From: Candidatus Omnitrophota bacterium
GTDB taxonomy: Bacteria > Omnitrophota > Gorgyraeia > Gygaellales > Profunditerraquicolaceae
Length of the DNA: 64,000 bases
Assembly: GCA_041661605.1 (NCBI GenBank)
Contig: JBAZUE010000001.1
Location: 478,928-542,927 of the forward strand
Direction of reading: 5' to 3'
Both the position numbers and the translations under genes were made by a program. Position 1 is the first letter of the stretch. The number at the start of each line of letters is the position of its first letter. The notes beneath the pieces were generated by a model that saw only the letters and a list, made by a program, of their open reading frames with translations, made no database searches and had not been told where the DNA came from. This document shows, in pieces, positions 4,470 through 55,847 of this stretch.

Positions 4470-4497
4470 TTGAAATTTTCAAATTATGTGTTATACT
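4470..4497 (+). promoter_or_regulatory. sigma70-type promoter for riboswitch 1
   Basis: TTGAAA (4470-4475), 16-nt spacer, TATACT (4492-4497), about 20 nt upstream of the aptamer. Confidence 0.45.
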
Positions 4498-4515
4498 TTT
4501 AATACAATCAGGAAC

Positions 4516-4600
4516 AGCTTTGAAAAAGGCTAACTAGCAGTAATGCTGGGGCGCAAAATGACAGCTCCGAGTTTTCTTGGAGGGCTGCATTGCCAAAGGA
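4516..4600 (+). promoter_or_regulatory. c-di-GMP-I (GEMM-I) riboswitch aptamer
   Basis: Sequence is AAGGCUAAC-UAGCA-GUAA-UGCUG-GGGCGCAAAAUGACAG-CUCCGAG-UUUU-CUUGGAG-GGCUGCAUUGCCAAAGG. It has a first hairpin with a GNRA loop, the conserved CGCAAA junction, a second hairpin, and a GCAUUGCC 3' element. This parallels the V. cholerae Vc2 aptamer (GGCAAACC..GAAA..GGGACGCAAAGCC..CCGG..AGCGGGGUUACCGA). A second copy at 23900-23990 shows compensatory stem changes. Confidence 0.85.
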
Positions 4601-4604
4601 TGAG

Positions 4605-4633
4605 AACCCTAAAATATCCTTTTAGGGTTTTTT
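4605..4633 (+). terminator. intrinsic terminator (riboswitch 1 expression platform)
   Basis: AACCCUAAAA-uauc-CUUUUAGGGUU followed by a U-tract. The aptamer 3' segment AAAGGAU can alternatively pair with AUCCUUU of this hairpin. Confidence 0.75.
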
Positions 4634-4637
4634 ATGG

Positions 4638-4667
4638 CCCCGGCTCAGTCAAGAACCGGGGTTTTTT
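4638..4667 (+). terminator. second tandem intrinsic terminator-like hairpin
   Basis: CCCCGG-cucagucaagaa-CCGGGG followed by UUUUUU, located 8 nt before the SD AAGGAGG of the 98-aa gene. Confidence 0.55.
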
Positions 4668-4687
4668 AATGGGCAAGGAGGTGCAAG

Positions 4688-4984
4688 ATGGGGAAAAAAG
4701 AGATTTTAACGGTTTTATTGGTTCTTTTAATGGCTTCCACTGTTTGGGCTGGTGATAGTGTGACGATCAGTATGTCTTGCACTATTCCTTCTATTCCGGG
4801 AGTGAATGCTCCTGCTCGTATGTCGGAGAGATTAGTCAGTAATCATCAGAGAGAAGATGTAATCAATAACAACGCAGCTGCCACGGTAGATGAAGAAATT
4901 ATAGAAAAGGAGGAGAGAAAAGAAAACCTTCTTGCCCAAGGAGAAAAAGTTACCAGAGAAGTAAGAACAATTTATAGCCGGTAA
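4688..4984 (+). CDS. small secreted protein, riboswitch-controlled (98 aa)
   Basis: SD AAGGAGG upstream of ATG 4688. Signal peptide MGKKEILTVLLVLLMASTVWA|GDS. The mature N-terminus is SVTISMSCTIPSIPG, and the rest is a charged, low-complexity tail. This is the only convincing plus-strand gene in the window. Confidence 0.7.
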   Translation: MGKKEILTVLLVLLMASTVWAGDSVTISMSCTIPSIPGVNAPARMSERLVSNHQREDVINNNAAATVDEEIIEKEERKENLLAQGEKVTREVRTIYSR

Positions 4985-4994
4985 CCCCCTCCTC

Positions 4995-7511
4995 CTATTT
5001 CTGTATTTTACGCAGAGGAATGTTCCAAACAGAAGATTCCCCCTCTTGAAGGGGGAATCTTTTTTTAAGGGCAACTAAAGGCAAATAATAAACAGGGATC
5101 GAGTTTAAGTCCGCGGATAATTCGTGGATTCCAGGCTGCGCCTGAGGATAGATATAGCTGCCATCTATTCCGGTAGTCATTGTTTTATCCCCATCGAGGG
5201 TTATTGTTACTCCAGAAACGCCTTTTTCTCCCGCCGAATATTCACCATCTTCATTTAAATCCTCAAAAACAATACCGCGGATCTCCGAACGCGAGGTAAT
5301 CCCGAAATAAACTTTGGAGCTGGCGGCATTTGCAATAGCAACCCCCTGGGTCACCGGAACGGTAAGCATATAGCCTGCCGGGAGAGTACCGGTATCCAAA
5401 GTTACATAAGCCATCTTACCGTGAACCTTGTCGAATTTAAAATACCCAAGTTCATCAGTAAGCTGGTTCCGTTTCTTGCCCAGCCAAATCTTAATACCAA
5501 AGACCGGAGGCTCATCACGATCCATCAGGCCGTTGGAATTATAATCTTTAAAGACATACCCCTGGATGGTAGAAACCGCGTCCCAACGCAGGCCGGTATC
5601 CCAAAGCAGCTTCATCCCTACGTTAAAACTGGCTTCCACCCTGCTAAGAACCGTAGGATTTTCTTTCCATACATTTCTGATCCTGGCAGAAGCATAAACC
5701 TCCTGTCCATCAGCAGGCCGGTATGAAAGCTCCCCATATCCCTCGATATAATCTTCCCCAGAAAGAAACGATAACGGGGAATTGGCGCGCTCTTCATCGC
5801 GCCAGGCAAAGCGCATTGACCCCCAAAATGGAGACGTACCGATACGGTCATACCAATCAAGCCCGGTTTCCGTAACATTGGGCCGTACGTGGTTACTGGT
5901 AGAGCGTTCAGTAAGCCAATTCAATTCTTTATTAAAATAATAGTATAAGGAGCCGATAACGCTGAAACGCAATCCCGCAAAAAACTTTTCATTAGCATAA
6001 TCCAAAGAATTGGCAGAAAAATTTTTATTATCCTGATGAGAATATTTTGCATAAGTAGAAACCTCTTTACCAAATACCGAGAGCAGCCTGTCCACGCCCA
6101 AGCCGGAAGACTGGTATCTTACCTGCGATAACTTACCCAGGTCATTCTGAAGGGTATAACTGATCTCAAAATTAGTAAACGGATCCATCTTGTAGTCAAG
6201 CGTAGCATCCAAATCTTCGTTAAAACGATTAGGGTTATCTTCCGCCGGATAAAGCCGGTCGCGATATATATCAAAACGCTGAATATAAGTAAGCTTATCC
6301 GTAGGCCTATAGTTTAAGTTTAAGAGGGCGCCAAATTCACCCTGCCGCCATCCAGGACCGGTAAGGCTCACAAACTCCTTATCGATATCCCTGAATTGCA
6401 GGTCCGCATAAAGGTCGGTACCATTATAACGGCTGGTAAATAACTGGGCTAAGTTCTTAGTATCGCTGGCAATTTCATAACTATAACCGTGATTTTTAAA
6501 ATTCCAACCTCCAATCAAATCATAGGCATAATCTTTAAGGAAATCCTGCCGGTCGCGGCCCCAGCCGTGAGCCACGCTAAATTTATAATTTTGCCATACT
6601 TCGGGAGAGAAATTTAAATTAATACCGCTCATAAATGAATGCTGAGCTTTGCTAAAGGTTTCCGTAGCTAATGTCCCGTAACGGCCGCCGTTTTCCCTTC
6701 CCCAAAAATAGGTATAATCAAATTTATTATTGAAAGCAGGCGAATAAAAATAAACGCCCCTTAAATCCGCCCCCGGTATAGCCAGATTATTAAAATAAGG
6801 ATTGTAATCTCCCGCCCGCAGGTTAAATCCTTTAAAATCACCCAGTTTACCATTAGTCAGGCCCGCGCTGACATAGGTCATATCAGTGGAAGTAGAAAGG
6901 GTCCTCTCTGTTATCGCCGCGTCAACTAACCCATAAGGAGTGGCCCCATACATATTTAAATTATGGATCCAAGAGTAAGTTCCGTTACGCCTGACTGTTT
7001 GCAGCCTGCGGCCAGTATAATAAGAATACCAGTCTAAATTATAGCGGAACTTGAAATTACCCATGTTTTCCTCTTCCTTGCGCATTGTTTCTTCCAGGGT
7101 CGGAGAATCAGTGACCGGCATAATACCGGTACATTCAATGCTTGTACGGCCATTATCATCCCAGACGATAATTGAGGCTAAGCCCCTATTCTTAGCCATA
7201 ACAGAAATCTCATTATCATTTAACCTTTCCGCATAGAGGATATCCGGCTGAACAACCAGAAAACGTTTAATATTACTGCCGGTGATAATAACATACTTGC
7301 CTTCTTCAATCTCAATAGGCTGCTGCATAGAAAGCCTGGGGTCATTAAGTAAATAAATTGCCTGGGTTTTTATTTTTGCGTTAGTATCGGATTCGCCTGC
7401 TTCTGTCAACTCCGGGATAAAGATCTGGGAAGGGCTTATTCCCTCTTTTTCGATAGTTTTCTTGACCTTAACCTGGTCAAGGGTATTCTCCATTACTGCC
7501 TGCCTATCCAA
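4995..7511 (-). CDS. large outer-membrane beta-barrel protein, usher-like candidate (N-terminus probably extends to about 7837 across a frameshift)
   Basis: 838 aa from TTG 7511, with no signal peptide in this ORF. IEIEEGKYVIITGSNIKRFLVVQPDILYAERL..ISVMAKNRGLASIIVWDDNG resembles the pilus-formation N-terminal beta-domain of CpaC/RcpA-type secretins. It is followed by about 550 aa of Y/F/W/G/N/D-rich beta-strand pattern. The C-terminus has two Ig-like repeats (GYVFKDYNSNGLMDRDEPPVFGIKIWL; IRGIVFEDLNEDGEYSAGEKGVSGVTITLDGD) like SdrD-B / CarboxypepD_reg domains. Confidence 0.6.
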   Translation of the reverse strand: MDRQAVMENTLDQVKVKKTIEKEGISPSQIFIPELTEAGESDTNAKIKTQAIYLLNDPRLSMQQPIEIEEGKYVIITGSNIKRFLVVQPDILYAERLNDNEISVMAKNRGLASIIVWDDNGRTSIECTGIMPVTDSPTLEETMRKEEENMGNFKFRYNLDWYSYYTGRRLQTVRRNGTYSWIHNLNMYGATPYGLVDAAITERTLSTSTDMTYVSAGLTNGKLGDFKGFNLRAGDYNPYFNNLAIPGADLRGVYFYSPAFNNKFDYTYFWGRENGGRYGTLATETFSKAQHSFMSGINLNFSPEVWQNYKFSVAHGWGRDRQDFLKDYAYDLIGGWNFKNHGYSYEIASDTKNLAQLFTSRYNGTDLYADLQFRDIDKEFVSLTGPGWRQGEFGALLNLNYRPTDKLTYIQRFDIYRDRLYPAEDNPNRFNEDLDATLDYKMDPFTNFEISYTLQNDLGKLSQVRYQSSGLGVDRLLSVFGKEVSTYAKYSHQDNKNFSANSLDYANEKFFAGLRFSVIGSLYYYFNKELNWLTERSTSNHVRPNVTETGLDWYDRIGTSPFWGSMRFAWRDEERANSPLSFLSGEDYIEGYGELSYRPADGQEVYASARIRNVWKENPTVLSRVEASFNVGMKLLWDTGLRWDAVSTIQGYVFKDYNSNGLMDRDEPPVFGIKIWLGKKRNQLTDELGYFKFDKVHGKMAYVTLDTGTLPAGYMLTVPVTQGVAIANAASSKVYFGITSRSEIRGIVFEDLNEDGEYSAGEKGVSGVTITLDGDKTMTTGIDGSYIYPQAQPGIHELSADLNSIPVYYLPLVALKKRFPLQEGESSVWNIPLRKIQK
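5035..5066 (+). terminator. intrinsic terminator of the 98-aa gene, embedded in the 3' end of the convergent gene
   Basis: GAUUCCCCCU-cuuga-AGGGGGAAUC followed by U7 on the plus strand. There is no U-tract on the minus strand. It lies inside codons ...KKRFPLQEGES... of the minus-strand ORF. Confidence 0.65.
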
Positions 7512-7758
7512 TCTGGCAGCAGAAGGATGAGTAGAGACGTTAGGCTTGTGGCTACCGGTATCTTTATTTAATTCTTCGCCGATGAGCCCAAGATAGTAGA
7601 TTGCGGGAGGATAACCGGGTTCAGCAATAAGGGCTCTATTGAATTCATCTTCAGCCTGCTGAAAATTACCTTTTTTCAGATCCTTGATACCTTCTTCACA
7701 GAGGTATCCGGCAATCTGGCTATAAGCAAAAACCGGTTGAGGATTTACGATAATGCAG

Positions 7759-7768
7759 AAAAAAAAAA
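7759..7768 (-). repeat. A10 (T10 on coding strand) homopolymer at a reading-frame junction
   Basis: The run of 10 A sits exactly where the upstream frame (TTG 7837, MFISRRLPKKLSFSLESSFLIFAFFF) and the main frame (..FFCIIVNPQPVFAYSQ..) of the barrel gene would join if one T were added. Confidence 0.9.
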
Positions 7769-7841
7769 TGCAAAAATCAGGAAGGATGATTCCAGGCTAA
7801 AAGAAAGTTTTTTGGGTAATCTCCTAGAGATAAACAAGATT

Positions 7842-8726
7842 TTAATGAAGCTTGCCGACTTGGACAATTTTATTATTCTCTCCTATTGTAACCGAGGCCT
7901 CTTTGGTAATCACAGGCCCCCTGCCCATTCCTGCGTCTGTAAGCGCTTTACCAAGATCAACGGTTATTACCAGATCATAATCTCCGGCAGGGATTTCATC
8001 TTTCCAGACACCCAATAAACTTCCCTTACCGCCCGGGAAAGTATAGACATTATTAAAAGCCCCCCGGGCGCTGACTATCCCGTCGCTATTCATAAGGCTG
8101 AAACTACCAGAAGTAGTTATGTCTGTATTGCCGGTATTTTCAAAATCCAGGGTTATATCCAAACCATCTTTTGCGTCTTTTGAAGGCTGAATATTTAAAT
8201 TGCCTATTTCAGCTCTCCTTGAGACCGTCCCCTTTACTTCGACATAAAATAAAGTAGCCACCCTGACATTAACATCCAGCCCCGCGGAACGGCCGGAGTC
8301 CGCCAGAGAACCTTTCCCTATTGCTGTCTCAAAAAACAAGGTAGCAAAACGCGCTCCGGTAGCATCAGAAGGGATATTGACTGAATAGCTTATCCTTTGT
8401 TTCCCGAATGCCGGCATAGTTACCTCTGCCGGAGAAAAGGTTATCCATGAACAAGCTGAAGCAGGAGTTGAGCCGGCAGGAAGAAACTCCTTGGCCCCTT
8501 CTCCTCCAGGCAAATAATACCAATCCTCAAGATAAAGCCGCATGCTTTTACTTTCATCAGTCGGATTATCAAGCATAATTTCTCCGAATGCACGTTCTCC
8601 GGGAGCTGCCACAACCCTGATTTTTGACTGATTCATAAAAGGCAACTTATCCGCCTGGGCAACAGAAACAAAAAGGCTGCCCATAAGAAATAAACAAGTA
8701 CTTATAAGACGCATTAATGATAACAA
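7842..8726 (-). CDS. periplasmic two-domain Ig-like protein, PapD-like chaperone candidate
   Basis: TTG start with SD AAGGGGG. Signal peptide ..LFVSVAQA|DK. IRVVAAPGERAFGEIMLDNPTDESKSMRLYLEDW resembles the first strands of fimbrial chaperones (RV.y......sl.l.N......l.Q.W). ITFSPAEVTMPAFGKQRISYSV resembles the chaperone l.vtPPlfrl.pg..q..Ri pattern. A second beta-sandwich domain follows at the C-terminus. Confidence 0.4.
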   Translation of the reverse strand: MLSLMRLISTCLFLMGSLFVSVAQADKLPFMNQSKIRVVAAPGERAFGEIMLDNPTDESKSMRLYLEDWYYLPGGEGAKEFLPAGSTPASACSWITFSPAEVTMPAFGKQRISYSVNIPSDATGARFATLFFETAIGKGSLADSGRSAGLDVNVRVATLFYVEVKGTVSRRAEIGNLNIQPSKDAKDGLDITLDFENTGNTDITTSGSFSLMNSDGIVSARGAFNNVYTFPGGKGSLLGVWKDEIPAGDYDLVITVDLGKALTDAGMGRGPVITKEASVTIGENNKIVQVGKLH

Positions 8727-8767: not shown

Positions 8768-9349
8768 TTACGGCGTAAGTGTAATGGTGACAGAACCAAT
8801 ATATGTGCCTGCCGGTGTATCCAGGCCGATCGGCGTTACTCCCGTAGCATCTTTACCTGCTTCTCCAGTGCCGATTCCGTAATATATACGCAACCAGCCG
8901 CCGGATAACTGCGTCTTGGTGTAAGCAATATTCTGGCTGTTTCCAAAACTATACTTAGCTAACTCAGTACTGACAGTGCTGCTGGTTTGCTTATTGAAAG
9001 AAACATTGACCTTACCGTTTAAATTATTAGTCGCATCCTTCTGAAGCGACACGCGTGTATGCGTCAAGGTCCAGACAGTGCCGGAATTATCTGTTACCCC
9101 GACATCCACAGCATAATAACTTGCAGGTAAAAATATCTTGTTTATGCTGTCCCAGGTCAAGGTACCAAAACTAATTGTTGAAGCAGTGGTCCAGACAGTG
9201 CCGGTAACTTTACTGACAGTAACAGTTAATCCCCCGGTCATGGTAGGGACAGTGGCATTAACAGTAACAGTCTGGCTTGCCGCAGCCCAGGCGCTTGTCG
9301 TACAAAAAACAGCAGCCACAAGAACCATAGAAATAAATATGTTCTTCAT
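8768..9349 (-). CDS. secreted single-domain fibre subunit candidate (pilin-like)
   Basis: The track ORF extends to 9403. ATG 9349 has SD GGAGGTGA. Signal peptide MKNIFISMVLVAAVFCTTSAWA|AAS. The protein is T/S/G/V-rich and all-beta. The C-terminus PAGTYIGSVTITLTP resembles the terminal strand of SCPU/Csu-type and other fimbrial subunits (aGtY.g..t.tv). Confidence 0.5.
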   Translation of the reverse strand: MKNIFISMVLVAAVFCTTSAWAAASQTVTVNATVPTMTGGLTVTVSKVTGTVWTTASTISFGTLTWDSINKIFLPASYYAVDVGVTDNSGTVWTLTHTRVSLQKDATNNLNGKVNVSFNKQTSSTVSTELAKYSFGNSQNIAYTKTQLSGGWLRIYYGIGTGEAGKDATGVTPIGLDTPAGTYIGSVTITLTP

Positions 9350-9418
9350 TTTTATCACCTCCTTTATTGATTTTTCCATTTTACAATTATTATTCTCAAA
9401 CATCCCGATCCCTCCTCC

Positions 9419-10852
9419 TTAAATTTCGGTTAATGTATAAGTTATCCGCGATGAATAGTTGCCCGCGCCTAAATCAGGCGGGCAAATTAATTCATAGATT
9501 ATTTTAAATTTATCTGCAGAGCCATATGAATCAGAAATAAATAAAAGCTGGCTGCCTTTTTTTACCGGCTCTTTACCAGGAATCCTCAAACTACCTTTAG
9601 TTTTATCCACCGGAAGGGTCTGCAAAGAAAAGTTTTTAGAGGGGATCTTGTCCCCACGGTCATTCACCAATTCCGAAAGGACGTTTTGCGTTACCTGGTA
9701 TGGCCGGCCGAGGTTCGATCTTACTTCAATGAGCACCTCATTTAAACGCGGCCCATCGCTGGGTTTTATATTCACGAAATCAATATTATAACGTTGATCC
9801 TGGGGGGAAATATAAATCTCAAAGATACGCTCCTGCCTGATCTCTAAATCCAGGCCCCCCAAATTTATCTGCTTGCCCGCGGATTCCAGAAGATACTGGA
9901 TACGCGAATGATAATTACCCGCTACCAGGCTTAATGGATCAGCTAAAGAATACGCAATTATAAAAACCTTATCCGCGCTGCCATCAGGCCGCGAAGAATA
10001 TATTGTCTGGATATTGCCTGAAACCGGAACCGGCTGATTTATGGCCACCCCCTTCTGGGCATCAGGGACACTAAAAAGAAGGTTGTTATTGCTGATAAAT
10101 TTTCCCTCCTGGGATTGAACCGACTTTGAGAGCATTTGCATGATCCTAAACGGACCGCTAAAAGAACTGTTAATTGTAACTACCGCCTTGGCTGATCCAC
10201 GAATATCATTAGTATCCGAAGGATTAATTATAATAGAGCCTGCTCCTTCTGCCGGGGCAACAGAAACCGACAAAGAGCCGCCATCATTGGAAATAAACAC
10301 ATATATCTCAATAATTTTGGTTACCGGGAGAGCAGATGAACCGATTGGGTTTAAAACCAAGCTAATCCTTCCGGTATAATATCCAGGAGCCAACTCCTGT
10401 GTATTTTTAATGGCATATACCAAAGTAAATGAATCGGCTGTTCCGGCGGGATTGGAGACATAGATAAGCTCATCATTCCTTACTACGATATCTCCGGGAG
10501 GAATACGTAAATCGCCGAATCTATTCGAACCGCGAAACCCCCTGACTACAAAATTATCCCTTATGGTAACCGAGGGATTGTCACGGTTCCGCAAAGGGCT
10601 TTCAATACGCTGGCGTATCTCATAACGATTATTAACCGTATCATTTGAAGTCGTAAATGTTATCCCGCGCGAAAAATTGTTCCGGTCAAACTCAAGCCGG
10701 CTTCCACCTTGATCAAGTATGAAGTTCAAATCAAATATGGCAAAGGCTTCCTGGCAGAAAATTCCGGAAGCTGCCAACGTAAGAATAAAGATAACTGCCG
10801 CAAATAATTTTTTCATTTTCATTATTGTAACATTTTTTAGCTTAAATTTCAA
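9419..10852 (-). CDS. secreted three-domain fibre/tip subunit candidate
   Basis: Signal peptide ..LAASGIFCQEAFA|IF. Contains three tandem domains of about 140 aa, each ending in G(T/S)AD..(F/V)..(I/V)Y........(A/P)G.Y..RI...L. The three endings are NPAGTADSFTLVYAI..LAPGYYTGRISLVL, RPDGSADKVFIIAYSL..LVAGNYHSRIQYLL and DSYGSADKFKIIYEL..LGAGNYSSRITYTL. The start is uncertain (TTG 10852, ATG 10822 or ATG 10816). Confidence 0.5.
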   Translation of the reverse strand: MKFKLKNVTIMKMKKLFAAVIFILTLAASGIFCQEAFAIFDLNFILDQGGSRLEFDRNNFSRGITFTTSNDTVNNRYEIRQRIESPLRNRDNPSVTIRDNFVVRGFRGSNRFGDLRIPPGDIVVRNDELIYVSNPAGTADSFTLVYAIKNTQELAPGYYTGRISLVLNPIGSSALPVTKIIEIYVFISNDGGSLSVSVAPAEGAGSIIINPSDTNDIRGSAKAVVTINSSFSGPFRIMQMLSKSVQSQEGKFISNNNLLFSVPDAQKGVAINQPVPVSGNIQTIYSSRPDGSADKVFIIAYSLADPLSLVAGNYHSRIQYLLESAGKQINLGGLDLEIRQERIFEIYISPQDQRYNIDFVNIKPSDGPRLNEVLIEVRSNLGRPYQVTQNVLSELVNDRGDKIPSKNFSLQTLPVDKTKGSLRIPGKEPVKKGSQLLFISDSYGSADKFKIIYELICPPDLGAGNYSSRITYTLTEI

Positions 10853-23866: not shown

Positions 23867-23898
23867 AAAAAACCCTAAAAGGCATATTTTAGGGTTTT
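23867..23898 (-). terminator. intrinsic terminator (riboswitch 2 expression platform)
   Basis: AAACCCUAAAA-uaugc-CUUUUAGGGUU plus a U-tract. Nearly identical to the 4605-4633 terminator. Confidence 0.75.
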
Positions 23899-37159: not shown

Positions 37160-39355
37160 TTAAATAATATCCAGCTCCAGTAATTGCCTGCGTACCTCCA
37201 GATATTTGTCAGAATCAACCAGCCTATATATCTCTTGCGCCTTGCGCCAATGCTCCCTGGCCATATTCTTTCTCCTCTGTTTTTTATATAACAAACCAAG
37301 ATTAAAGTTAACATCGGCTAAATCCATACGGTTATCAATCTCTTCCGAGAGTTTAGCTGAATCCTTAAAATACTTTTCCGCCTTTGCCAGATCATCAATT
37401 TCCATATAAAGTTCACCGATCATATTATAGCCGCCGGACAAATTTACCTTATTATTTTGTTCCTGGTCTATCTTCAGGCCCCTGAAATAATAATCTAACG
37501 CCCTTCCATACTCCTTCTCAAAAAGATAGATCTCTCCTAAATTAAAATAGCAGTCGCTTAACTCATTCTTTAAATTTAAGCGCTCAAATATTTTCCGGCT
37601 TTTTTCATAGAAATTTTCCGCCGCGGCGTAATCGTTTTTATTTACAAACACTAAACCGATATCAAAATAATCGCAGGCCAGGTTCCTGGAATTTTCAAAA
37701 TTGCCCGAACGCTCTAAATTAATGGAAACGCTCTTAGTTAAGAGGTCCAGGGCCTGATCAAAATTATTTTTATCTATATGCCAAACCGCCAATTTTCTTA
37801 AAACCACCGCCTCATTGGTTTTATCATTAAGCCTGCGGCTTAAATTCATTGCCTTATCATAGAACTCCCACGCTTTAGTATATTGGCCATCCATCTGGTA
37901 AAACCACCCCAGCTTAATATAAGCCTGGATAAGATGCTTATTGTTATTAAGCCCGCCGCTCTTAAGCACGTAATCAAAATAATATTTCAGGGCCCTCTCT
38001 TTATTACCCAGGCGTTGATAGGCATTGGCAATTACAGGATAAACCGGTAAAAAATTCTGATCTTTGGAAACCAAACGTTCCCCAAGGCCTATCGCTGACT
38101 GATTATTTCCTTTGCGATACTCAGCTTGCGCATTAAGAAACAGATAAATCTTAGCCGGGTTAAGCTTAGGCAACCAAACTGCCAAAAGGACAGCGGAACA
38201 AATAAAAAATACCGCCAGAGCGGTTTTCATCATAACCCCTTTATGGATAACAGGTATTTTATACTTACGTTCTCTATGGCGCTTAAACTTGAAGAAAACA
38301 AACCCGGGGTCTCCGTAAAGAAGATAGTTTACCCAATGCAAACTAAACAGTCCGAATTCATCCACCAGCTTCAATTTTGATAAACGCATTGACTCCCCCA
38401 CGCTGACGCCTGAAATAAGCTGCGTATAAAATTCCCGGGCAAATACAAGGCTGGGGCTATCTTCGATTTTGCGGATTGCGCCTATATAATGCCTGACTCC
38501 CGCGAACAAAAATGCGCTGGCCATCCCATAACCTGCTTTCTGGTATCCCGAATCAATCAAACCGGTATTTTCCTCGGCTGAATGGCAGGCGTTAGAAAAC
38601 ACCATGGCCGGCAGGCTGCAGCTCTGGCCCATCTTAAGGATATCCTCAGCCTTAAATAACCCGTCACTTAAAACCCAACCGCTTAACTGCGGCTCTTTTT
38701 TATCAAATTCGCAATGGCCGGCAAAATGCACAATATCATAATCACAAATATTTTTTTTGACATAGGCATTACTTATATCGGTTGATTTAAAATCAATATA
38801 TACCTTTCTGGTTTTATGGCTAAACTGGTTCTTAATACTCAGGCCTTCGGTATAGGCGGATTTTAAATCGGCGTTCGGATCAGCCAAAATCAGCATTTTT
38901 AAACTTTCAGCTAAATCACGGTACTGCAGCAGGGCCGGATCCCCCCTGCTGCGCACCAACCTGCCCAGGCTGAATTTAAGAGATAAAAATTGCGTGCCGT
39001 CAAAGATTAATTCCCATGGTAGATAAATCAACTCTTCATCCAAAGAAAGGGTTAATACGCAAGGCGGGGTGTTTTTAAGTTTTTCCTTGATCGAACGGCT
39101 CAGTAAATGATTCCAGAATAGTTGACCGGATTTTTGTAAAGACCTTAGCTGATCAAACTTGGCCGCTTGATCTTTGGCAGGACGGTTTAAAATACCGATT
39201 AAATCCGCGCTTAGACTTATTAACTCATCAAAAGAAACGGCAACTAAGCTGTAATGCCGTAAAGTAGGGGCTGTTTGACCCTGCCCAAAAAGGCTCATCT
39301 TAAGAGAATCATTCTGCTTAAAAACCTCTAAGATTAACGCTTCCGCGCAAGGCAT
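37160..39355 (-). CDS. membrane-spanning CHAT-domain protease-like protein with C-terminal TPR repeats
   Basis: 731 aa. CHAT dyad context is YDIVHFAGHCEF and PAMVFSNACHSAEE. One TM helix (TALAVFFICSAVLLAVWL), then about 8 TPR-like repeats. Confidence 0.75.
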   Translation of the reverse strand: MPCAEALILEVFKQNDSLKMSLFGQGQTAPTLRHYSLVAVSFDELISLSADLIGILNRPAKDQAAKFDQLRSLQKSGQLFWNHLLSRSIKEKLKNTPPCVLTLSLDEELIYLPWELIFDGTQFLSLKFSLGRLVRSRGDPALLQYRDLAESLKMLILADPNADLKSAYTEGLSIKNQFSHKTRKVYIDFKSTDISNAYVKKNICDYDIVHFAGHCEFDKKEPQLSGWVLSDGLFKAEDILKMGQSCSLPAMVFSNACHSAEENTGLIDSGYQKAGYGMASAFLFAGVRHYIGAIRKIEDSPSLVFAREFYTQLISGVSVGESMRLSKLKLVDEFGLFSLHWVNYLLYGDPGFVFFKFKRHRERKYKIPVIHKGVMMKTALAVFFICSAVLLAVWLPKLNPAKIYLFLNAQAEYRKGNNQSAIGLGERLVSKDQNFLPVYPVIANAYQRLGNKERALKYYFDYVLKSGGLNNNKHLIQAYIKLGWFYQMDGQYTKAWEFYDKAMNLSRRLNDKTNEAVVLRKLAVWHIDKNNFDQALDLLTKSVSINLERSGNFENSRNLACDYFDIGLVFVNKNDYAAAENFYEKSRKIFERLNLKNELSDCYFNLGEIYLFEKEYGRALDYYFRGLKIDQEQNNKVNLSGGYNMIGELYMEIDDLAKAEKYFKDSAKLSEEIDNRMDLADVNFNLGLLYKKQRRKNMAREHWRKAQEIYRLVDSDKYLEVRRQLLELDII

Positions 39356-50348: not shown

Positions 50349-51587
50349 TTATCCTCCGATTTTTGAAATCTCAAATATCGGCAAAAAGATACCCGTAATC
50401 ATAATACCTATAACCCCTCCGATAAAAACCAGCACAAAAGGCTCAAACATAGAAACAAAACGCGCCAGGAAGACCTCGCAATAATCCTGATAAAAAGTGT
50501 TGATCTTTTTAAACATCTGGGGCAGTTCTCCAATCTCTTCCCCGATGCTTACCATTTGCACGAACATGGGGTCAAAAAAAGCGCTTTTCTCCAAAGGTTC
50601 ACGTAAAGATTTTCCCTCGCGCACATCTTCTTTAACTTTACGGATGATATCAGCCATAATCAAATTGCCCACGCTGCGTTCGGATATTTCCAGAGAATAA
50701 AGAATGGGTACCCCCGATTCCAAAAGCGTGGACATTTCCGATGAAAATCTTTCTACGTTCAAAGCTACAAAAAACTCGCCAAATACCGGAATTTTAAACT
50801 TAAAATTCTCAAAATTTCTCCTGCCTGTTTTAGTCTTAACGTATTTCTTAAAAGCAAAGATAATTCCGGCGATACCCAGGATTATCGTAATCATATTAAA
50901 CCTTAAGAAATCACTTACTTTTAATAATATCTGCGTAAGCACGGGCAGGGTGATATTGAACCCCTTGAATATCTCCGCAAAAGTAGGCACTATTTTTACC
51001 GCCATTAAAAACAACGCCGCTAAACCCGCGGTCAAAAGTATACCCGGATAAATCAAAGCCGAGATAATCTTGCCCCTGAACTCGGCGTCCCTTTCCAAAT
51101 ACGTAGCCAGACGGCTTAACACTACTGCCAAATTTCCGCTGGCCTCCCCGCTCTCAACAAGGTTTACCCAAAGATCCGTGAAAACTTTTGGATGTTTGGC
51201 CATTGCCTCATGGAAGCTTAAGCCGGACTCCATGTTTTTTTGTAAATCCAGGACAACAAAGTAAAGTTTTTTACTGACTACCTGTTTAGAGATAATATCC
51301 AGGCTTTTAAGAATGGTAACCCCTGCCCCAAGTAAAGTTGCTAATTGCCGGCAGAAAAGGGTAAGGTCATCAGCGCTGATACTATTACGCTTCTGCTTGA
51401 TTTTGTCTTTGATAACCGGCTTAATTGTGCTGCTCTTAAAAGCTTCGGTATTCTCAGGAATAACACTGATTACAATCAATCCCCGGGATTGAATCCTGCT
51501 TACCACATCTTCCTGATCCAGCCCTTCTTCTATCCCGGTTTCTTTCTTTCCCGAAGTATCTCTGGAAATATAATAAAATTTCGGCAT
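50349..51587 (-). CDS. pilC: type II secretion / type IV pilus platform protein (GspF/PilC family)
   Basis: 412 aa with two T2SSF repeats and 3 TM helices. Motifs LATLLGAGVTILKSL and LLESGVPILYSL. Confidence 0.85.
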   Translation of the reverse strand: MPKFYYISRDTSGKKETGIEEGLDQEDVVSRIQSRGLIVISVIPENTEAFKSSTIKPVIKDKIKQKRNSISADDLTLFCRQLATLLGAGVTILKSLDIISKQVVSKKLYFVVLDLQKNMESGLSFHEAMAKHPKVFTDLWVNLVESGEASGNLAVVLSRLATYLERDAEFRGKIISALIYPGILLTAGLAALFLMAVKIVPTFAEIFKGFNITLPVLTQILLKVSDFLRFNMITIILGIAGIIFAFKKYVKTKTGRRNFENFKFKIPVFGEFFVALNVERFSSEMSTLLESGVPILYSLEISERSVGNLIMADIIRKVKEDVREGKSLREPLEKSAFFDPMFVQMVSIGEEIGELPQMFKKINTFYQDYCEVFLARFVSMFEPFVLVFIGGVIGIMITGIFLPIFEISKIGG

Positions 51588-53302
51588 TACTCCACTCCCA
51601 ATGTCACGGAGAAAACCTCTTCTAATGAAGTTATCCCGCTTTCAACCTTCTTAATCCCTGATTCATATAGAGTTTGCATACCCGCAGCCCTGGCTACCTC
51701 ACGTATTTTTAGATAAGGAGCCCTCTGGTTAATCAAATCCTGAATTTCTATAGTACAAGGCATAACCTCACAAATATTGGTCCTGCCCCTATAACCTGTA
51801 TTATTGCATTTAGGACATCCTTTATGCCGATAGATTAAATCCCCTTTAATTTTAGCGCCCTTTAATTGTTCGATAGTAGGTTCATAAGCCTCTTTACATT
51901 CCGGGCATAGCTTTCTAATCAATCTCTGGGCAATAACCACCAATAACGACGGGCCGAGCATATACGGCTCAACTCCAATATCCATAAGGCGGCTTGCCGC
52001 TGAAGGAGCATCATTAGTATGTAAAGTACTTAAAACCAAATGCCCGGTGAGCGCTGAACGGATACAGATCTGGGAAGTTTCCAAGTCCCTGACTTCCCCC
52101 ACCATCATAATGTCCGGATCCTGGCGCAAAAAACTGCGCAAGGCAGCGGCAAAAGTAAGGCCGACTTCAGGCTTGATCTGAACCTGGTTGATCCCGTCCA
52201 TTTTATACTCTACCGGGTCTTCAACGGTAACAATATTCTTCGAAGGATTCTTGATTTCGTTTAAAATCGCATAAAGAGTAGTTGACTTTCCACTCCCGGT
52301 AGGCCCGGTAACAAAAACTAAACCATACGGCTGGTTAATTGCTTTACGCACATGCTCCAGCTGCGTAGCATCAAAACCGGCAGAGCTTAAATCCAAAACT
52401 TTGTTGCCGCGGTCCAATATCCTCAATACCGCTTTTTCACCATAGATAGTCGGAATAATAGAAACACGGATATCAATAGGCCGGTCATTGATACGCACCA
52501 AAATTGCTCCGTCCTGCGGAAGTCGCTTCTCCGCGATATCCATCTTCGATAAGATCTTTACGCGTGAAACAATCGGCAGGTGCAGATGTTTTGCCGGAGG
52601 AGGTATTTCGCAAAGTTTTCCATCAATGCGATACCTTAAGGAAGTCCTTTCCTTAAAAGGCTCGATATGTATATCCGAAGCGCCTTCTTCAATTGCCTGG
52701 CGGATAATTAAATCCACTATTTTGACCACTGGCGCTTCTTCAGCGCGGGCAATCAGCTTGTCAAGGCTTAACTCCTGGCCTAACTCATCCCCTGTATCCT
52801 GCTCCGTTGTATCAATATCATAACTGGACTCGACAGCATCCCGCAACATCGCGGATTTACCGTAAAATTCCTCAATTGCTTTCTTTATATCCGAACGCGT
52901 GGCAATAACCGGGTTAATTTCACACCCGGTGAGTTTCTTTAGATTGTCTATAAGAATGAAATCCAGAGGATCGAACATTGCCACTGTAAGCGACCTGGCC
53001 GTACGCGATAAAGGCAACACATAATTCTTAAACGCGAACTCCTGCAAGATCAAATGCTCTAATCCCTGGCCAGCCACTGGTTTGAGCATGCCTGTGCCGA
53101 GAGCAAAAAATGGGACATTCAACTGTTTACCTAAAACAGCTACAATCTGCTCCTCTTTAACCATCTCCAGTTTAATCAAGACCTCTCCCAACCTGCCGGA
53201 TTCTTTCCTTTGAACGCTGATAGCTTTTTCCAGCTGGGTGGGCGTAATCAAACCTTCCCTGATAAGGAGTTCCCCGAGTCTTAAATACTTATCTTTTTGC
53301 AT
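51587..53302 (-). CDS. pilB: type II/IV secretion ATPase (GspE/PilB family)
   Basis: N-terminal T2SSE_N (LGELLIREGLITPTQLEKAI), Walker A GPTGSGKST, Asp/His boxes, tetracysteine CPECK...CPKCNNTGYRGR. Confidence 0.9.
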   Translation of the reverse strand: MQKDKYLRLGELLIREGLITPTQLEKAISVQRKESGRLGEVLIKLEMVKEEQIVAVLGKQLNVPFFALGTGMLKPVAGQGLEHLILQEFAFKNYVLPLSRTARSLTVAMFDPLDFILIDNLKKLTGCEINPVIATRSDIKKAIEEFYGKSAMLRDAVESSYDIDTTEQDTGDELGQELSLDKLIARAEEAPVVKIVDLIIRQAIEEGASDIHIEPFKERTSLRYRIDGKLCEIPPPAKHLHLPIVSRVKILSKMDIAEKRLPQDGAILVRINDRPIDIRVSIIPTIYGEKAVLRILDRGNKVLDLSSAGFDATQLEHVRKAINQPYGLVFVTGPTGSGKSTTLYAILNEIKNPSKNIVTVEDPVEYKMDGINQVQIKPEVGLTFAAALRSFLRQDPDIMMVGEVRDLETSQICIRSALTGHLVLSTLHTNDAPSAASRLMDIGVEPYMLGPSLLVVIAQRLIRKLCPECKEAYEPTIEQLKGAKIKGDLIYRHKGCPKCNNTGYRGRTNICEVMPCTIEIQDLINQRAPYLKIREVARAAGMQTLYESGIKKVESGITSLEEVFSVTLGVE

Positions 53303-54848
53303 TTTTGTCGAAATTATTCAAACTGGAATTAATCAAATAATCACGGTTAATATGCGTAACTACATTCTGTTCACGAATAGGCAGGCTGAACCTCTGCATC
53401 TGCTCTAATTTTACCTGGTTACTCTTGACAATCCGGGGAGTAATAAACACCAAAAGCTCCCTTTCTCTGTCCTTATCTTTATTCTTGTGCCTGAACAGTA
53501 AGCCAATTATAGGAATATCCCCTAAAACAGGCAGCTTGGTTATAGTTTCAGAGGTATCATTACGTATCAGGCCTCCGATAACCACTGTTTCACCATCTTT
53601 AATCCTTACTATGGATTTTGTGGAACGTTCTTCAGGATCTTTAAACGTAGTGTTAAAAGTGCTGGTAGATGCATCCTTTACCTTAGGATAAATAAACATG
53701 GTGATCTCCCCGGTATCGGAATTAATCTGAGGAGTTACCCTGAGGGAAACGCCGGTCTCCACTCTTTCGGCGCTGGTGGTAGTTGTTGAAGCCGTGCCCT
53801 GGCCTTGAGTATCGGTAATCTGGCCGATAGCCTCATTAGTAGTGATCTTAATTTCCGCGGGTTCATTATTTAGAGTCATAATCCTCGGCCTGGCTAATAT
53901 CTTAGTATCAGATTGCGATTTCAAGAAGTCAAATTGGATCTGATAAGGATTGCCTTGAGCAGTGCCCGTATCGTCAATAGAACCCGGATTAATATTCAAG
54001 GTCCCATCACCGGTGTTAAAAAGCTTGGTCCAACCGGCATAGGGGAACCCCGTACTTGCGGCAGCGCCAAATATATATGCTGTTAACGGTGTCTGGCCAT
54101 ATTTTACCCCCAGTTTATCTATCGCATTCTTGCTTACATCAAGCATTTCCACCTCTAACATAATTTGGGGAATTTCAATATCAAGAGCGGTAACTACCTG
54201 GATAATGACCTTCATCCGCGCAGGCGTATCCGTAACAATCAAGCTGTTAGTGCGGTAATCCTCAATTAATGAGCCATTAGCGGAAAGGAGCTTCTTGACG
54301 GCATAAGTGATCCCGGATTCATCTTCCACTTTCCATTTACCGGTTGAACTATCCCCTGAAGAAGAACTGCTTGAGGACCCGGAAGTAGACCCGGAGGACC
54401 CGGAAGTAGAGCTAGTGACTATATTTTTTGACTCCTCATCCTTCAGTGAAGAAGATGATACGCTGGCATGTTTTAAATAAAACACCTTGGTGGTTGTTTC
54501 AATTTCTATTTTTCCCAAATCCTTAACCACAAAAATATTAGCCTTTTTGTCAAGTTCATAAGAAAGGTTATTCGCGCTAAAGATCTTATCCATTGCCTGG
54601 CTCAAGGGGACCTTATCCAGGTAAAGAGTTACTTTCCTGTCAGCCACGCCCTCGGAAGCGATAAAATTCATCCCTGACTGCATGGAAAAAATCTTGAGTA
54701 TGTCCTTTATCCCGGCGTCCTGGAAATCCATAGAGATGATCGGCTCAGTTTCAGCGGGAGGCTGCTGCGTCTGCGCATTTAGATGCGGGATAAAAAATAC
54801 GCATACTATTGAAAAAATAAAAGCTAAAGTTAAAAAAGTTTTTTTCAT
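53289..54848 (-). CDS. secretin (GspD/PilQ family)
   Basis: Signal peptide, N-domains, a Ser-rich linker, and the secretin core ending in VPVLGDIPIIGLLFRHK...LLVFITPRIV. Confidence 0.85.
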   Translation of the reverse strand: MKKTFLTLAFIFSIVCVFFIPHLNAQTQQPPAETEPIISMDFQDAGIKDILKIFSMQSGMNFIASEGVADRKVTLYLDKVPLSQAMDKIFSANNLSYELDKKANIFVVKDLGKIEIETTTKVFYLKHASVSSSSLKDEESKNIVTSSTSGSSGSTSGSSSSSSSGDSSTGKWKVEDESGITYAVKKLLSANGSLIEDYRTNSLIVTDTPARMKVIIQVVTALDIEIPQIMLEVEMLDVSKNAIDKLGVKYGQTPLTAYIFGAAASTGFPYAGWTKLFNTGDGTLNINPGSIDDTGTAQGNPYQIQFDFLKSQSDTKILARPRIMTLNNEPAEIKITTNEAIGQITDTQGQGTASTTTTSAERVETGVSLRVTPQINSDTGEITMFIYPKVKDASTSTFNTTFKDPEERSTKSIVRIKDGETVVIGGLIRNDTSETITKLPVLGDIPIIGLLFRHKNKDKDRERELLVFITPRIVKSNQVKLEQMQRFSLPIREQNVVTHINRDYLINSSLNNFDKNAKR

Positions 54849-55318
54849 TATTCCTCCTTATTCCCTTTTATCTTACGTAAAGACGCATCATTACCGGGGG
54901 CAGCCAGATTGGCCGTCCTTCCGCCTAAATTCAAAGTAATTCCCTTTTTCTCTATGCTTACTATTTCGGCTCCGTTTATAGTATCCCCAACTCCTAATAT
55001 CTTATTATTAATAATGACTTGCGAAGTTTTACTGCCCAAGATTACTCCCTGCACTTTAAATTGCCCCAAATCAATCGCTGATTTCTCCGAATTTGCATCC
55101 TCTGGCGGCTCCTGGGCAGCCTTCTCCTCTTTTTCTTTTTTTTCTTTTTCTATGGCTGACTGCAAAAGGTCTCCAAATGGATCGCGAAGGTCTCCGGAGG
55201 TATATTCCATCACTGGGCGAGAAATTACCCCGTCGGGATTGCTATCCGCAAAGACAATAGGCGCAAAGCCCGCAGCAAATAGTAAAATAAACCATAGAAA
55301 TTTATCCGTTCTTCTCAT
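54848..55318 (-). CDS. PilP/GspB-like periplasmic protein
   Basis: Signal/anchor, an acidic KE-rich linker, and the C-terminus FKVQGVILGSKTSQVIINNKILGVGDTINGAEIVSIEKKGITL. Confidence 0.5.
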   Translation of the reverse strand: MRRTDKFLWFILLFAAGFAPIVFADSNPDGVISRPVMEYTSGDLRDPFGDLLQSAIEKEKKEKEEKAAQEPPEDANSEKSAIDLGQFKVQGVILGSKTSQVIINNKILGVGDTINGAEIVSIEKKGITLNLGGRTANLAAPGNDASLRKIKGNKEE

Positions 55319-55319
55319 A

Positions 55320-55847
55320 TTATATACAAATGATTGTGCTTATCTTCAAACTGATATCCAGACCCGCCTCTTCACTCCTATTCAACTGAGTACTAGTAGG
55401 CGTGGAGATGCTGACATCTTCCACAATAAACAAATCCTTGTAATTTTCAACCTTGCTGATGAACTGCCCCAGGGCATGATAGCTCTCAACCCTGACCACG
55501 ATCAAAAACGAAGTTTTTATATACTCCGGATATTTCTGCTCCGTACCCGGCTTAACCGAAACAATCTTAACTTTGGTCCCCTTTGAAATATCGGTCATCG
55601 CGTCGATAACCGAACCCAGGTCCTTCCTGTTAAAAGCCTGCTTATAAGTGTTGATCCTCTTCTCCACCCTGATTAAATTATCTATTACTTCGCTCTTTTT
55701 TATCTCTTCATTTTTGTTTTCTTCTAAAGTAGTAAGCTGCTGGTTTTGCATGTTAAACAGAAAAAGAGCCACGATTAGCGCCAGCAATATTACTCCAGCA
55801 TTTATAACCTTGTTTTTATTCTTGCTGAAGAAGTCCATCGTTATCAT
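55320..55847 (-). CDS. pilO: PilO-like pilus assembly protein
   Basis: ATG 55847 with SD GGAG. One TM helix, a coiled coil, then a ferredoxin-like C-terminus (SFLIVVRVESYHALGQFISKVENYKDLFIV). Confidence 0.6.
   Translation of the reverse strand: MITMDFFSKNKNKVINAGVILLALIVALFLFNMQNQQLTTLEENKNEEIKKSEVIDNLIRVEKRINTYKQAFNRKDLGSVIDAMTDISKGTKVKIVSVKPGTEQKYPEYIKTSFLIVVRVESYHALGQFISKVENYKDLFIVEDVSISTPTSTQLNRSEEAGLDISLKISTIICI

Follow-up and report, generated by a model that had tools for sequence, protein, structure and literature searches.

A c-di-GMP-I riboswitch with two serial terminator-like hairpins upstream of a small secreted protein gene and convergent with a usher-like operon in Candidatus Omnitrophota

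The sequence considered here is a stretch of 64,000 nucleotides (nt) from a contig of a Candidatus Omnitrophota bacterium (JBAZUE010000001.1), referred to below as the window, with all positions counted from its first letter. On its plus strand it carries a riboswitch of the cyclic diguanosine monophosphate (c-di-GMP)-I class, also termed GEMM-I, followed by two intrinsic-terminator-like hairpins (T1 and T2) and by the gene of a secreted protein of 98 amino acids (aa), small98, which converges with an operon for a usher-like fibre system. With moderate confidence, we regard this riboswitch as a transcriptional OFF switch on small98, in which the bound aptamer would let T1, T2 or both of them form, the product being likely tied to the adjacent fibre operon. 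A simpler variant, with one site regulated and the other serving as a pause or fail-safe, is quite possible.

A genome scan for the small gene returned 39 related loci (designated by L numbers), and in 35 of these a GEMM-I aptamer at gathering score was present upstream of the gene on the same strand. The order aptamer, T1, T2, Shine-Dalgarno sequence and gene, all within about 90 nt, was common to the clade of the window, in which the leader was better conserved than the protein encoded downstream, with P1a, the first hairpin of the aptamer, nearly invariant in sequence, as was T1.

Aptamer, promoter and terminators of the leader

The elements of the leader, all on the plus strand, are as follows.

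4470-4497, plus: predicted sigma-70-type promoter, with the -35 TTGAAA at 4470-4475, a 16-nt spacer and an extended -10, TG-n-TATACT, ending at 4497
4518-4598, plus: c-di-GMP-I (GEMM-I) aptamer, RF01051, 62.4 bits
4518-4522 with 4594-4598, plus: aptamer helix P1, 5 base pairs (bp), CUUUG with CAAAG
4534-4549, plus: aptamer hairpin P1a, with the GUAA loop at 4540-4543
4552-4557, plus: aptamer junction CGCAAA
4558-4591, plus: aptamer hairpin P1b
4590-4599, plus: 3' segment of the aptamer, UUGCCAAAGG
4602-4633, plus: T1, AACCCUAAAA-UAUCC-UUUUAGGGUU, the first intrinsic-terminator-like hairpin, with U6
4636-4667, plus: T2, GGCCCCGG...CCGGGGU, the second intrinsic-terminator-like hairpin, with U6
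4675-4683, plus: Shine-Dalgarno sequence AAGGAGGTG, starting 8 nt beyond the U tract of T2 and ending 4 nt ahead of the ATG
4688-4984, plus: small98, secreted protein of 98 aa, ATG at 4688

An earlier reading of this DNA, made from the sequence only, had claimed a GEMM-I aptamer and proposed an RF01051 search as the check. In a scan of the whole window with Rfam, RF01051 matched nt 4518-4597 of the plus strand over the full model (1-87) with 62.4 bits, well above the gathering score of 35 bits, and an E value of 8e-10 computed for the whole window, so the search was passed clearly. The GUAA loop, the CGCAAA junction, the second hairpin and the segment UUGCCAAAGG were all located as claimed or within a few bases. 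The aptamer consists of two hairpins on a three-way junction closed by P1, the first hairpin bearing a GNRA-type loop, and its 3' end reads UUGCCAAA in the RF01051 alignment. The second hairpin (P1b) is shortened, and the positions of the 11-nt tetraloop receptor are deleted, appearing as gaps in the alignment; this receptor is usually absent from aptamers with loops other than GAAA. Compensatory insertion in P1 (CUUUUG/CAAAAG) was observed in L005, L010 and L015.

In the same alignment, the equivalents of the ligand-contacting bases are G4528, A4555 and C4593, which we take to be G20, A47 and C92 in the numbering of the Vc2 crystal structures, and these G, A and C bases were present in all related loci except the divergent L020 and L030. 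An A at position 20 (Vc2 numbering) would mark the type that binds 3'3'-cyclic GMP-AMP (cGAMP). Because G, A and C are retained at the contact positions, the cGAMP type was ruled out, and the window aptamer is, on its sequence, a full member of the family and of the c-di-GMP type. The c-di-GMP-I-GGC variant (RF03167), in which G replaces A at the A47 equivalent to give the consensus CGCGAA, was also ruled out. The RF03167 label was assigned to 15 related loci and to a second aptamer of the window (23985-23905), yet every aptamer so labelled reads CGCAAA; we regard them as canonical, the label reflecting the P1 and the short second hairpin of that model and not the variant base.

The promoter, which the sequence-only reading had placed at 4470-4497 as well, was the top match in the region, with 10 of 12 consensus positions plus the TG of the extended -10; TTGAAAT, which includes the -35, and TGTTA...T were kept in 14 related loci. 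A separate promoter between T2 and the ATG was rejected, for there are 20 nt of space and the promoter scan was blank there. The strong Shine-Dalgarno sequence claimed ahead of a 98-aa secreted protein was likewise found, the protein having a signal peptide, and GGGCAAGGAGG in the Shine-Dalgarno region was conserved in 16 leaders. No plausible leader peptide was found in the leader. That small98 is the only plus-strand gene, as had also been stated, held in part: all ORFs (open reading frames) of at least 130 aa that do not overlap a longer minus-strand ORF lie on the minus strand, and smaller plus-strand genes are possible.

T1 has its stem at 4602/4605-4629 and its U6 at 4628-4633, with a folding energy of -17.7 kcal/mol for the extended stem, while the T2 stem (4637-4662) and U6 (4662-4667) gave -15.6 kcal/mol. 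Both hairpins were recovered by ViennaRNA and by an RNAalifold consensus of 17 loci, which bears out the earlier claim of two consecutive hairpins with U tracts; a simple terminator consensus scan flagged neither, the loop of T2 being above the limit of that scan. Thus, hairpins containing GC pairs and followed by U tracts lie between the aptamer and the start codon, and alternative pairings involving aptamer nucleotides are available to them.

T1 was present in 33 of the 39 loci, in one copy per locus and always immediately 3' of the aptamer, and only two copies were found in the 64 kb of the window, each after an aptamer. Its sequence, AACCCUAAAG...CUUUAGGGUUUUUU, was almost invariant even where the proteins share 30% identity, and forms at the DNA level a near-perfect inverted repeat, ACCCTAAA-N-TTTAGGGT (4605-4629; also 23873-23894). 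This is conservation of sequence beyond what the structure of a terminator needs, and complementarity to the conserved core of the aptamer accounts for part of it. T2, present in about 31 of 37 leaders, had compensatory changes at 3-4 stem pairs, with the variants CCCCGG/CCGGGG, CCUCGG/CUCGAGG, CCCUGG/CCAGGG and CCCCAGC/GCUGGGG, and was absent from L017, L020, L024, L032 and the second riboswitch of the window.

Some related leaders depart from this layout. L035 (3397-3562) retains an aptamer fragment and T1, and L037 and L038 (3780-3870) gave sub-threshold aptamer matches with the first hairpin lost, which suggests that the sensor has been lost or is diverging in some lineages. In L017, L019 and L021-L033, one to three copies of the motif CCCACC[AT]GCCACGG were located just upstream of the Shine-Dalgarno sequence of the small gene. 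The core CCACC[AT]GCCACGG had no significant occurrence in the window, where the sole near match (2 mismatches) is at 4874-4886, inside the small gene.

Alternative pairings and direction of the switch

Two candidate antiterminators were identified in the window leader.

4595-4601 with 4616-4622, plus: candidate antiterminator 1, AAAGGAU with AUCCUUU, excluding P1 and the top of T1
4545-4552 with 4637-4644, plus: candidate antiterminator 2, the P1a 3' strand and junction, GCUGGGGC, with the 5' arm of T2

P1 (4518-4522/4594-4598) and T1 share no nucleotides, and the candidate antiterminators use nucleotides of P1 and of the ligand pocket. More generally, the terminator arms overlap no aptamer helix and every alternative pairing found needs nucleotides of the bound aptamer. 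By its sequence, this layout would be a classic OFF arrangement; the question of ON or OFF, which the sequence-only reading had left undecided, is therefore answered provisionally as OFF.

Transcription would start about 13 nt upstream of the aptamer. With c-di-GMP bound, P1, P1a and the junction would be locked, and the downstream RNA would fold T1 and then, for polymerases escaping T1, T2, so that little full-length messenger RNA (mRNA) would be made. In the free aptamer, the AAAGG tracts (AAAGGC of the 5' junction or AAAGGAU of the 3' tail) would capture the CCUUU of the T1 loop and 3' arm, and the P1a 3' strand GCUGGGGC would capture the T2 5' arm GCCCCGGC while the 3' arm of T2 is still to be transcribed, allowing polymerase to pass both terminators into small98. 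GEMM-I aptamers bind slowly, judging from the kinetics of Vc2, and a second termination checkpoint would be useful for this reason.

The pairing with T2 is the better supported of the two. For nascent transcripts ending at 4645-4652, the minimum free energy structure pairs the T2 5' arm with GCUGGGGC, before the 3' arm of T2 emerges. The same type of pairing was predicted in about 16 of 20 loci, versus 7 of 51 generic terminators that were taken from the same genomes and grafted into the leader as controls. Median duplex energy between T2 arm and aptamer was -15.3 kcal/mol (-13.4 over 15 less redundant loci), compared with -7.6 for generic and -8.5 kcal/mol for C-rich generic arms (Mann-Whitney p values of 3e-7 and 2e-4, respectively). 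In addition, CUAGGGC in the aptamer accompanies GCCCUGG in T2 in L023, L025, L026 and L033, and in L025 and L033 that U is in a Watson-Crick pair with the aptamer but in a wobble pair within T2.

The pairing of AAAGGAU with AUCCUUU, proposed earlier as an antiterminator, does exist and shows some covariation (GGAA:UUCC in L023, L026 and L027; the extra A paired with an extra U in L005, L010 and L015), but it is weak and involves no more than the uppermost 3 pairs of T1. The better partner for the T1 loop in distant loci is the 5' pocket strand of the aptamer, UAAAGGCAAAC with GUUUGCCUUUA, the complementarity extending over 8-9 bp in L022, L028 and L032 and over a perfect 11 bp in L024, and G precedes the CCUUU of the loop in about 14 of 20 leaders. 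Ligand control of T1 is weakly supported by these comparisons.

The small secreted protein, the convergent operon and their predicted interlocked ends

In the protein small98, a signal peptide is followed by the conserved GDSVTISMSCTIPSIPGVNAP and by a charged linker, with TIY[ST]R at the C-terminus, and it is matched at 100% identity by a hypothetical protein from a metagenome-assembled genome of Candidatus Omnitrophota. Its family is confined to Omnitrophota, with 115 close matches and, by profile search, 347 clusters at 50% identity, all of about 80-130 aa, and mean column identity is 77%. Attempts at family assignment failed: no match was found in Pfam or NCBIfam, and the AlphaFold2 model, with a predicted local distance difference test (pLDDT) score of 60, has no globular fold, just the signal peptide and one helix. 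No plausible minus-strand ORF was found antisense to small98. The genes and predicted terminators facing it are given below.

4939-4996, minus: H-A, putative terminator of the usher operon, in the last 16 codons of small98
4995-7511, minus: usher-like outer-membrane protein, ORF of 838 aa, stop codon at 4995-4997
5031-5066, plus: H-B, predicted terminator of the small98 transcript, a stem of 13-14 bp with U7, in the last 24 codons of the usher-like gene
7842-8726, minus: p294, chaperone-like protein with two immunoglobulin (Ig) domains
8768-9403, minus: p211, pilin-like subunit
9419-10852, minus: p477, subunit or adhesin with three repeats

The first mature residues of small98, GDSVTISMSCTIPSIPG, with alternating hydrophobics, align to the N-terminal extension of p211, AASQTVTVNATVPTMTG (hhalign, 80% probability, E value 1.3e-5). 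In chaperone-usher pilins, the N-terminal segment is the donor strand. Sharing this extension with p211 and having no pilin body, small98 would probably influence how the fibre is assembled, perhaps by capping it or terminating the chain; our hypothesis is that it is a donor strand without an acceptor groove, which would cap the growing fibre. An OFF switch would be sensible with such a role, because high c-di-GMP would then mean less capping and more fibre.

The 838-aa protein contains an N-terminal PF13629 domain and two C-terminal SdrD_B/Ig-like domains. Its model (pLDDT 85.3) shows the N-domain, a beta-barrel of about 24-26 strands and the two Ig-like domains, and a search against solved structures returned the FimD and PapC ushers as best matches (E values of 5e-19 to 3e-15 over about 780-820 aligned columns), other outer-membrane barrels scoring ten orders of magnitude worse. 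For the barrel alone, the template modeling score against FimD and PapC was 0.43-0.49. No match to Pfam Usher was obtained, PF13629 taking the place of the usher N-terminal domain, and a plug insertion was not evident in the secondary-structure string. As for the other products, the p294 profile matched the fimbrial chaperone EcpB weakly (E value 0.0034), and one member of its family gave a PapD_N match at E value 0.11; the C-termini of p211 and p477 carry pilin-like AG.Y.G..T.TL motifs; and the p211 family is limited to Omnitrophota, without a solved relative by sequence profile. Searches from the operon proteins to solved structures by sequence profile gave marginal matches only, and no Pfam PapD match was found in the operon. 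Because the sequence-family tests for Usher and PapD failed, the operon is called usher-like, on the basis of the model, and not a member of those families. The guess of the sequence-only reading that this is a fibre locus with an outer-membrane gene agrees with the model, and the c-di-GMP sensor that it placed beside a surface-structure locus is found there. Synteny of the operon was kept in nearly all loci, with convergence on the small gene and a gap of 10-20 nt, down to 28% protein identity.

With about 930-970 aa, the homologues of the usher-like protein exceed the window ORF by some 120 aa. At 7512-7800 of the minus strand, homologous N-terminal sequence continues in frame, preceded by an in-frame stop (KTFF*PGIILPDF vs KTFPFLGISLL), and no ATG, GTG or TTG was found before 7511. 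The gene may be disrupted or start at an unusual codon, or the sequence may contain an error.

The two transcripts are predicted to end within each other. The H-B hairpin (5031-5063) and its U7 (5060-5066) lie about 70 nt inside the usher-like gene, in its last 24 codons, in agreement with the earlier placement of the small98 terminator in the last 25 or so codons of the convergent gene. H-B was conserved in the close clade and is retained through compensatory changes in L014 (CUUCC/GGAAG), L017 (UCACCC/GGGUGA) and L030, although it codes for part of the usher C-terminus. On the opposite strand and immediately past the usher stop codon, H-A pairs GUUACCGG (4985-4978) with CUGGUAAC (4956-4949), followed by U5 (4948-4944), at -24.3 kcal/mol, and its lower stem pairs GGAGGAGGGGG, from a C-rich spacer, with UUUUUCUCCUU, the U-rich tract. 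H-A was conserved in the close clade (window, L001-L006 and L008-L015) and is probably the terminator of the usher operon. The C-rich spacer itself, CCCCCTCCTC (4985-4994), 10 nt long and situated between the convergent stop codons, is conserved; GGAGGAGGGGG on the minus strand resembles a Shine-Dalgarno sequence, and no ORF was found behind it.

If H-A and H-B both terminate, the two mRNAs would be complementary over about 120 nt (roughly 4944-5066), and no read-through would be needed for this. The earlier statement that a read-through product would be antisense to the 3' end of the fibre operon thus stands as to the overlap, which is predicted, and not as to read-through of these ends, which is not required. 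Transcription passing T1 and T2 would accordingly also produce RNA that is antisense to the 3' part of the usher mRNA over about 120 nt. In distant loci, separate intergenic terminators are present, the embedded hairpins being clear only in the clade of the window. Among riboswitch classes, c-di-GMP riboswitches are most often found in antisense arrangements and show the strongest antisense tendency (PMC9943018), so an antisense contribution to regulation is plausible here by analogy.

The second riboswitch of the window, with its aptamer at 23985-23905 on the minus strand (labelled RF03167, with the canonical A at the variant position), is followed by the same T1 hairpin (23894-23873) and by no T2. 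Downstream of it, to about 21329, there are a tiny ORF, a conserved ORF of 87 aa (ORF-X, 23694-23431), a secreted protein of 140 aa and a BNR/sortilin-repeat protein of 524 aa. In the distant loci (L018-L036, e.g. L021:3640-4000), ORF-X is about 100 aa with the motif QRVVTFLNRDEVDFLDKLGKDALFSTG and lies between T2 and the small secreted gene, and its homologue in the window adjoins the second riboswitch, not the first. No Pfam match was found for ORF-X, which could be a small regulator. Elsewhere in the window, a type IV pilus/type II secretion cluster (51587-57393, minus) encodes an ATPase with an MshEN domain, a secretin and PilM/PilN. MshEN is a c-di-GMP-binding domain, and this cluster is a candidate for a second, protein-based c-di-GMP output in the window. 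A 731-aa CHAT-domain protein with tetratricopeptide repeats, of the caspase-like protease family (37160-39355, minus), is unrelated to the riboswitch.

Rival readings and comparison with known systems

Several observations weigh against the OFF-switch reading with both terminators gated. T2 is lacking in about 6 leaders, including that of the second riboswitch, and must be dispensable for this reason. Antiterminator 1 in the clade of the window amounts to 6-7 AU-rich pairs that leave the GC-rich lower half of T1 free, with a duplex energy barely above the null from generic terminators (p 0.05-0.08). The complementarity of T2 to the aptamer is in part that of a C-rich arm meeting a G-rich strand, and its covariation comes to about 3 independent events. 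At equilibrium, no structure is ever more stable than T1 and T2, and any regulation would therefore have to be kinetic. The hhalign match of small98 with p211 takes in the end of the signal peptide. Furthermore, c-di-GMP usually induces pili and adhesins, so its repressing a pilus-linked gene runs counter to expectation and would be sensible only if the protein is inhibitory.

Some of these points would be met if one hairpin alone were ligand-controlled, either with T1 regulated and T2 a constitutive fail-safe keeping a low-copy protein low, or with T1 mainly a hairpin-dependent pause, which would buy time for the slow-binding aptamer, and the decision made at T2. The absence of T2 from about 6 of 37 leaders while T1 is never missing, the energetic weakness of antiterminator 1, the better statistics of the T2-aptamer pairing and the conserved U tracts of both hairpins can all be read in this way; a constitutive strong terminator before a promoterless gene would waste most transcripts, however, and the T2 5' arm is far more complementary to the aptamer than are generic terminator arms. 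We keep this as a possible reading that falls well short of probable. The general expectation that c-di-GMP up-regulates pili and adhesins would instead suit an ON switch, with read-through promoted by the ligand and small98 induced along with the fibre, perhaps through an unrecognised alternative fold. Since no terminator arm overlaps an aptamer helix, the ligand cannot hide a terminator strand, and all alternative pairings need nucleotides of the bound aptamer, which makes an ON switch quite improbable.

The near-consensus promoter and the two strong terminators right after the aptamer would also fit a leader that is chiefly a stand-alone, terminated c-di-GMP-binding small RNA, a sponge or store with residual read-through into the gene, for which the massively expressed riboswitch RNA of Bdellovibrio (PMC3627812) is a precedent. 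Unlike that RNA, 35 of 39 loci have a conserved ORF with a strong Shine-Dalgarno sequence no more than 20 nt further on, and the terminator arms are complementary to the aptamer, so such a role seems to us just as improbable as an ON switch. Somewhat less remote, and still unlikely, is that antisense transcription is the main output and the small ORF secondary: through cleavage of RNA duplexes or collision of polymerases, convergent transcription under riboswitch control would disturb the usher operon at its 3' end. Convergence with a gap of 10-20 nt, kept phylum-wide to 28% protein identity, the interlocked terminators and the antisense tendency of c-di-GMP riboswitches (PMC9943018) speak for it, against which stand the strong conservation of small98 itself (77% mean column identity, 347 clusters) and the restriction of clear embedded hairpins to the clade of the window, distant loci having separate intergenic terminators. 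The least likely reading is that T1 is invariant as a DNA operator, ACCCTAAA-N-TTTAGGGT, for the ORF-X protein: the T1 sequence is conserved across loci with 30% identical proteins, and ORF-X co-occurs with T1, being encoded behind the riboswitch in distant loci and, in the window, behind the second one, but T1 always has a U tract and always directly follows an aptamer, ORF-X matches no recognised DNA-binding family, and complementarity to the aptamer core explains part of the conservation.

The transcriptional OFF switch on small98 remains the preferred reading. A more elaborate form of it, which we consider doubtful, is that one aptamer gates two serial terminators through different strands of its own, the target being a donor-strand-only mini-protein that caps an undescribed usher-like fibre of Omnitrophota, and that the read-through RNA anneals to the 3' end of the usher mRNA. 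If true, two-terminator gating would give a slow-binding sensor a second chance per transcript, and high c-di-GMP would lengthen or stabilise fibres by a double negative, with less terminator peptide and less antisense RNA.

The aptamer itself belongs to a familiar family and would be annotated in any run of Rfam. Less ordinary, by comparative and thermodynamic inference, are the phylum-wide two-terminator platform, in which the second terminator may read the aptamer too, the conserved link to a divergent usher-like system and the mutually embedded terminators. Omnitrophota is an uncultivated, ultra-small and possibly host-dependent phylum in which signalling is almost unknown, and for this phylum the locus offers a definite c-di-GMP effector, with a surface fibre as the likely output. 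In the literature searched, no work on riboswitches of Omnitrophota was found, nor a paper describing tandem terminators behind one riboswitch aptamer. Compact and tractable in vitro, the leader would lend itself to the question of whether one aptamer is able to govern termination at sites in series. The convergent operon resembles a very divergent chaperone-usher relative outside Proteobacteria, and a riboswitch-controlled protein with only the N-terminal extension of a pilin suggests a simple control of fibre growth.

The window aptamer shares with other RF01051 riboswitches, such as Vc2 of Vibrio cholerae and Cd1 of Clostridioides difficile, the two hairpins, the GNRA-type loop, the CGCAAA junction and the G, A and C contacts. 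Cd1, located upstream of flgB, was reportedly described by Sudarsan et al. in 2008 as a transcriptional OFF switch, and the window leader is similar in having an intrinsic terminator after the aptamer and a probable logic of ligand-induced termination. It differs from Vc2 and Cd1 in having two serial terminators after one aptamer, phylum-wide, in the nearly invariant P1a and T1, in the deletion of the canonical 11-nt receptor positions, and in that both the host phylum and the regulated gene family are new.

Resemblance to chaperone-usher pili lies in the predicted usher layout of the 838-aa protein, with FimD and PapC closest, in the two-Ig chaperone-like protein and in the pilin-like subunits, while the lack of Pfam Usher and PapD matches, the PF13629 N-domain and the plug insertion that is not evident set the system apart. 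Like the terminator subunits PapH and FimI, small98 shares the N-terminal extension of the subunits; unlike these full pilins, it has no pilin body.

Tandem riboswitch architectures consist of two complete riboswitches or of two aptamers in series (PMC12452182) and, like the window leader, present two successive termination checkpoints; here a single aptamer is present, and the second checkpoint, having no sensor of its own, appears to reuse another strand of the aptamer. As in antisense-acting riboswitches (PMC9943018), the transcript is predicted to run antisense into a neighbour of related function; unlike in those cases, the riboswitch also drives a conserved protein gene, and the 3'-3' overlap of about 120 nt would arise from mutually embedded terminators. 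Finally, the Bdellovibrio merRNA, a massively expressed c-di-GMP riboswitch RNA with no conserved downstream ORF (PMC3627812), has in common with the window leader a GEMM-I aptamer, early termination and a host group suspected of a host-dependent lifestyle, and differs from it in that a conserved ORF follows the Omnitrophota aptamer in 35 of 39 loci.

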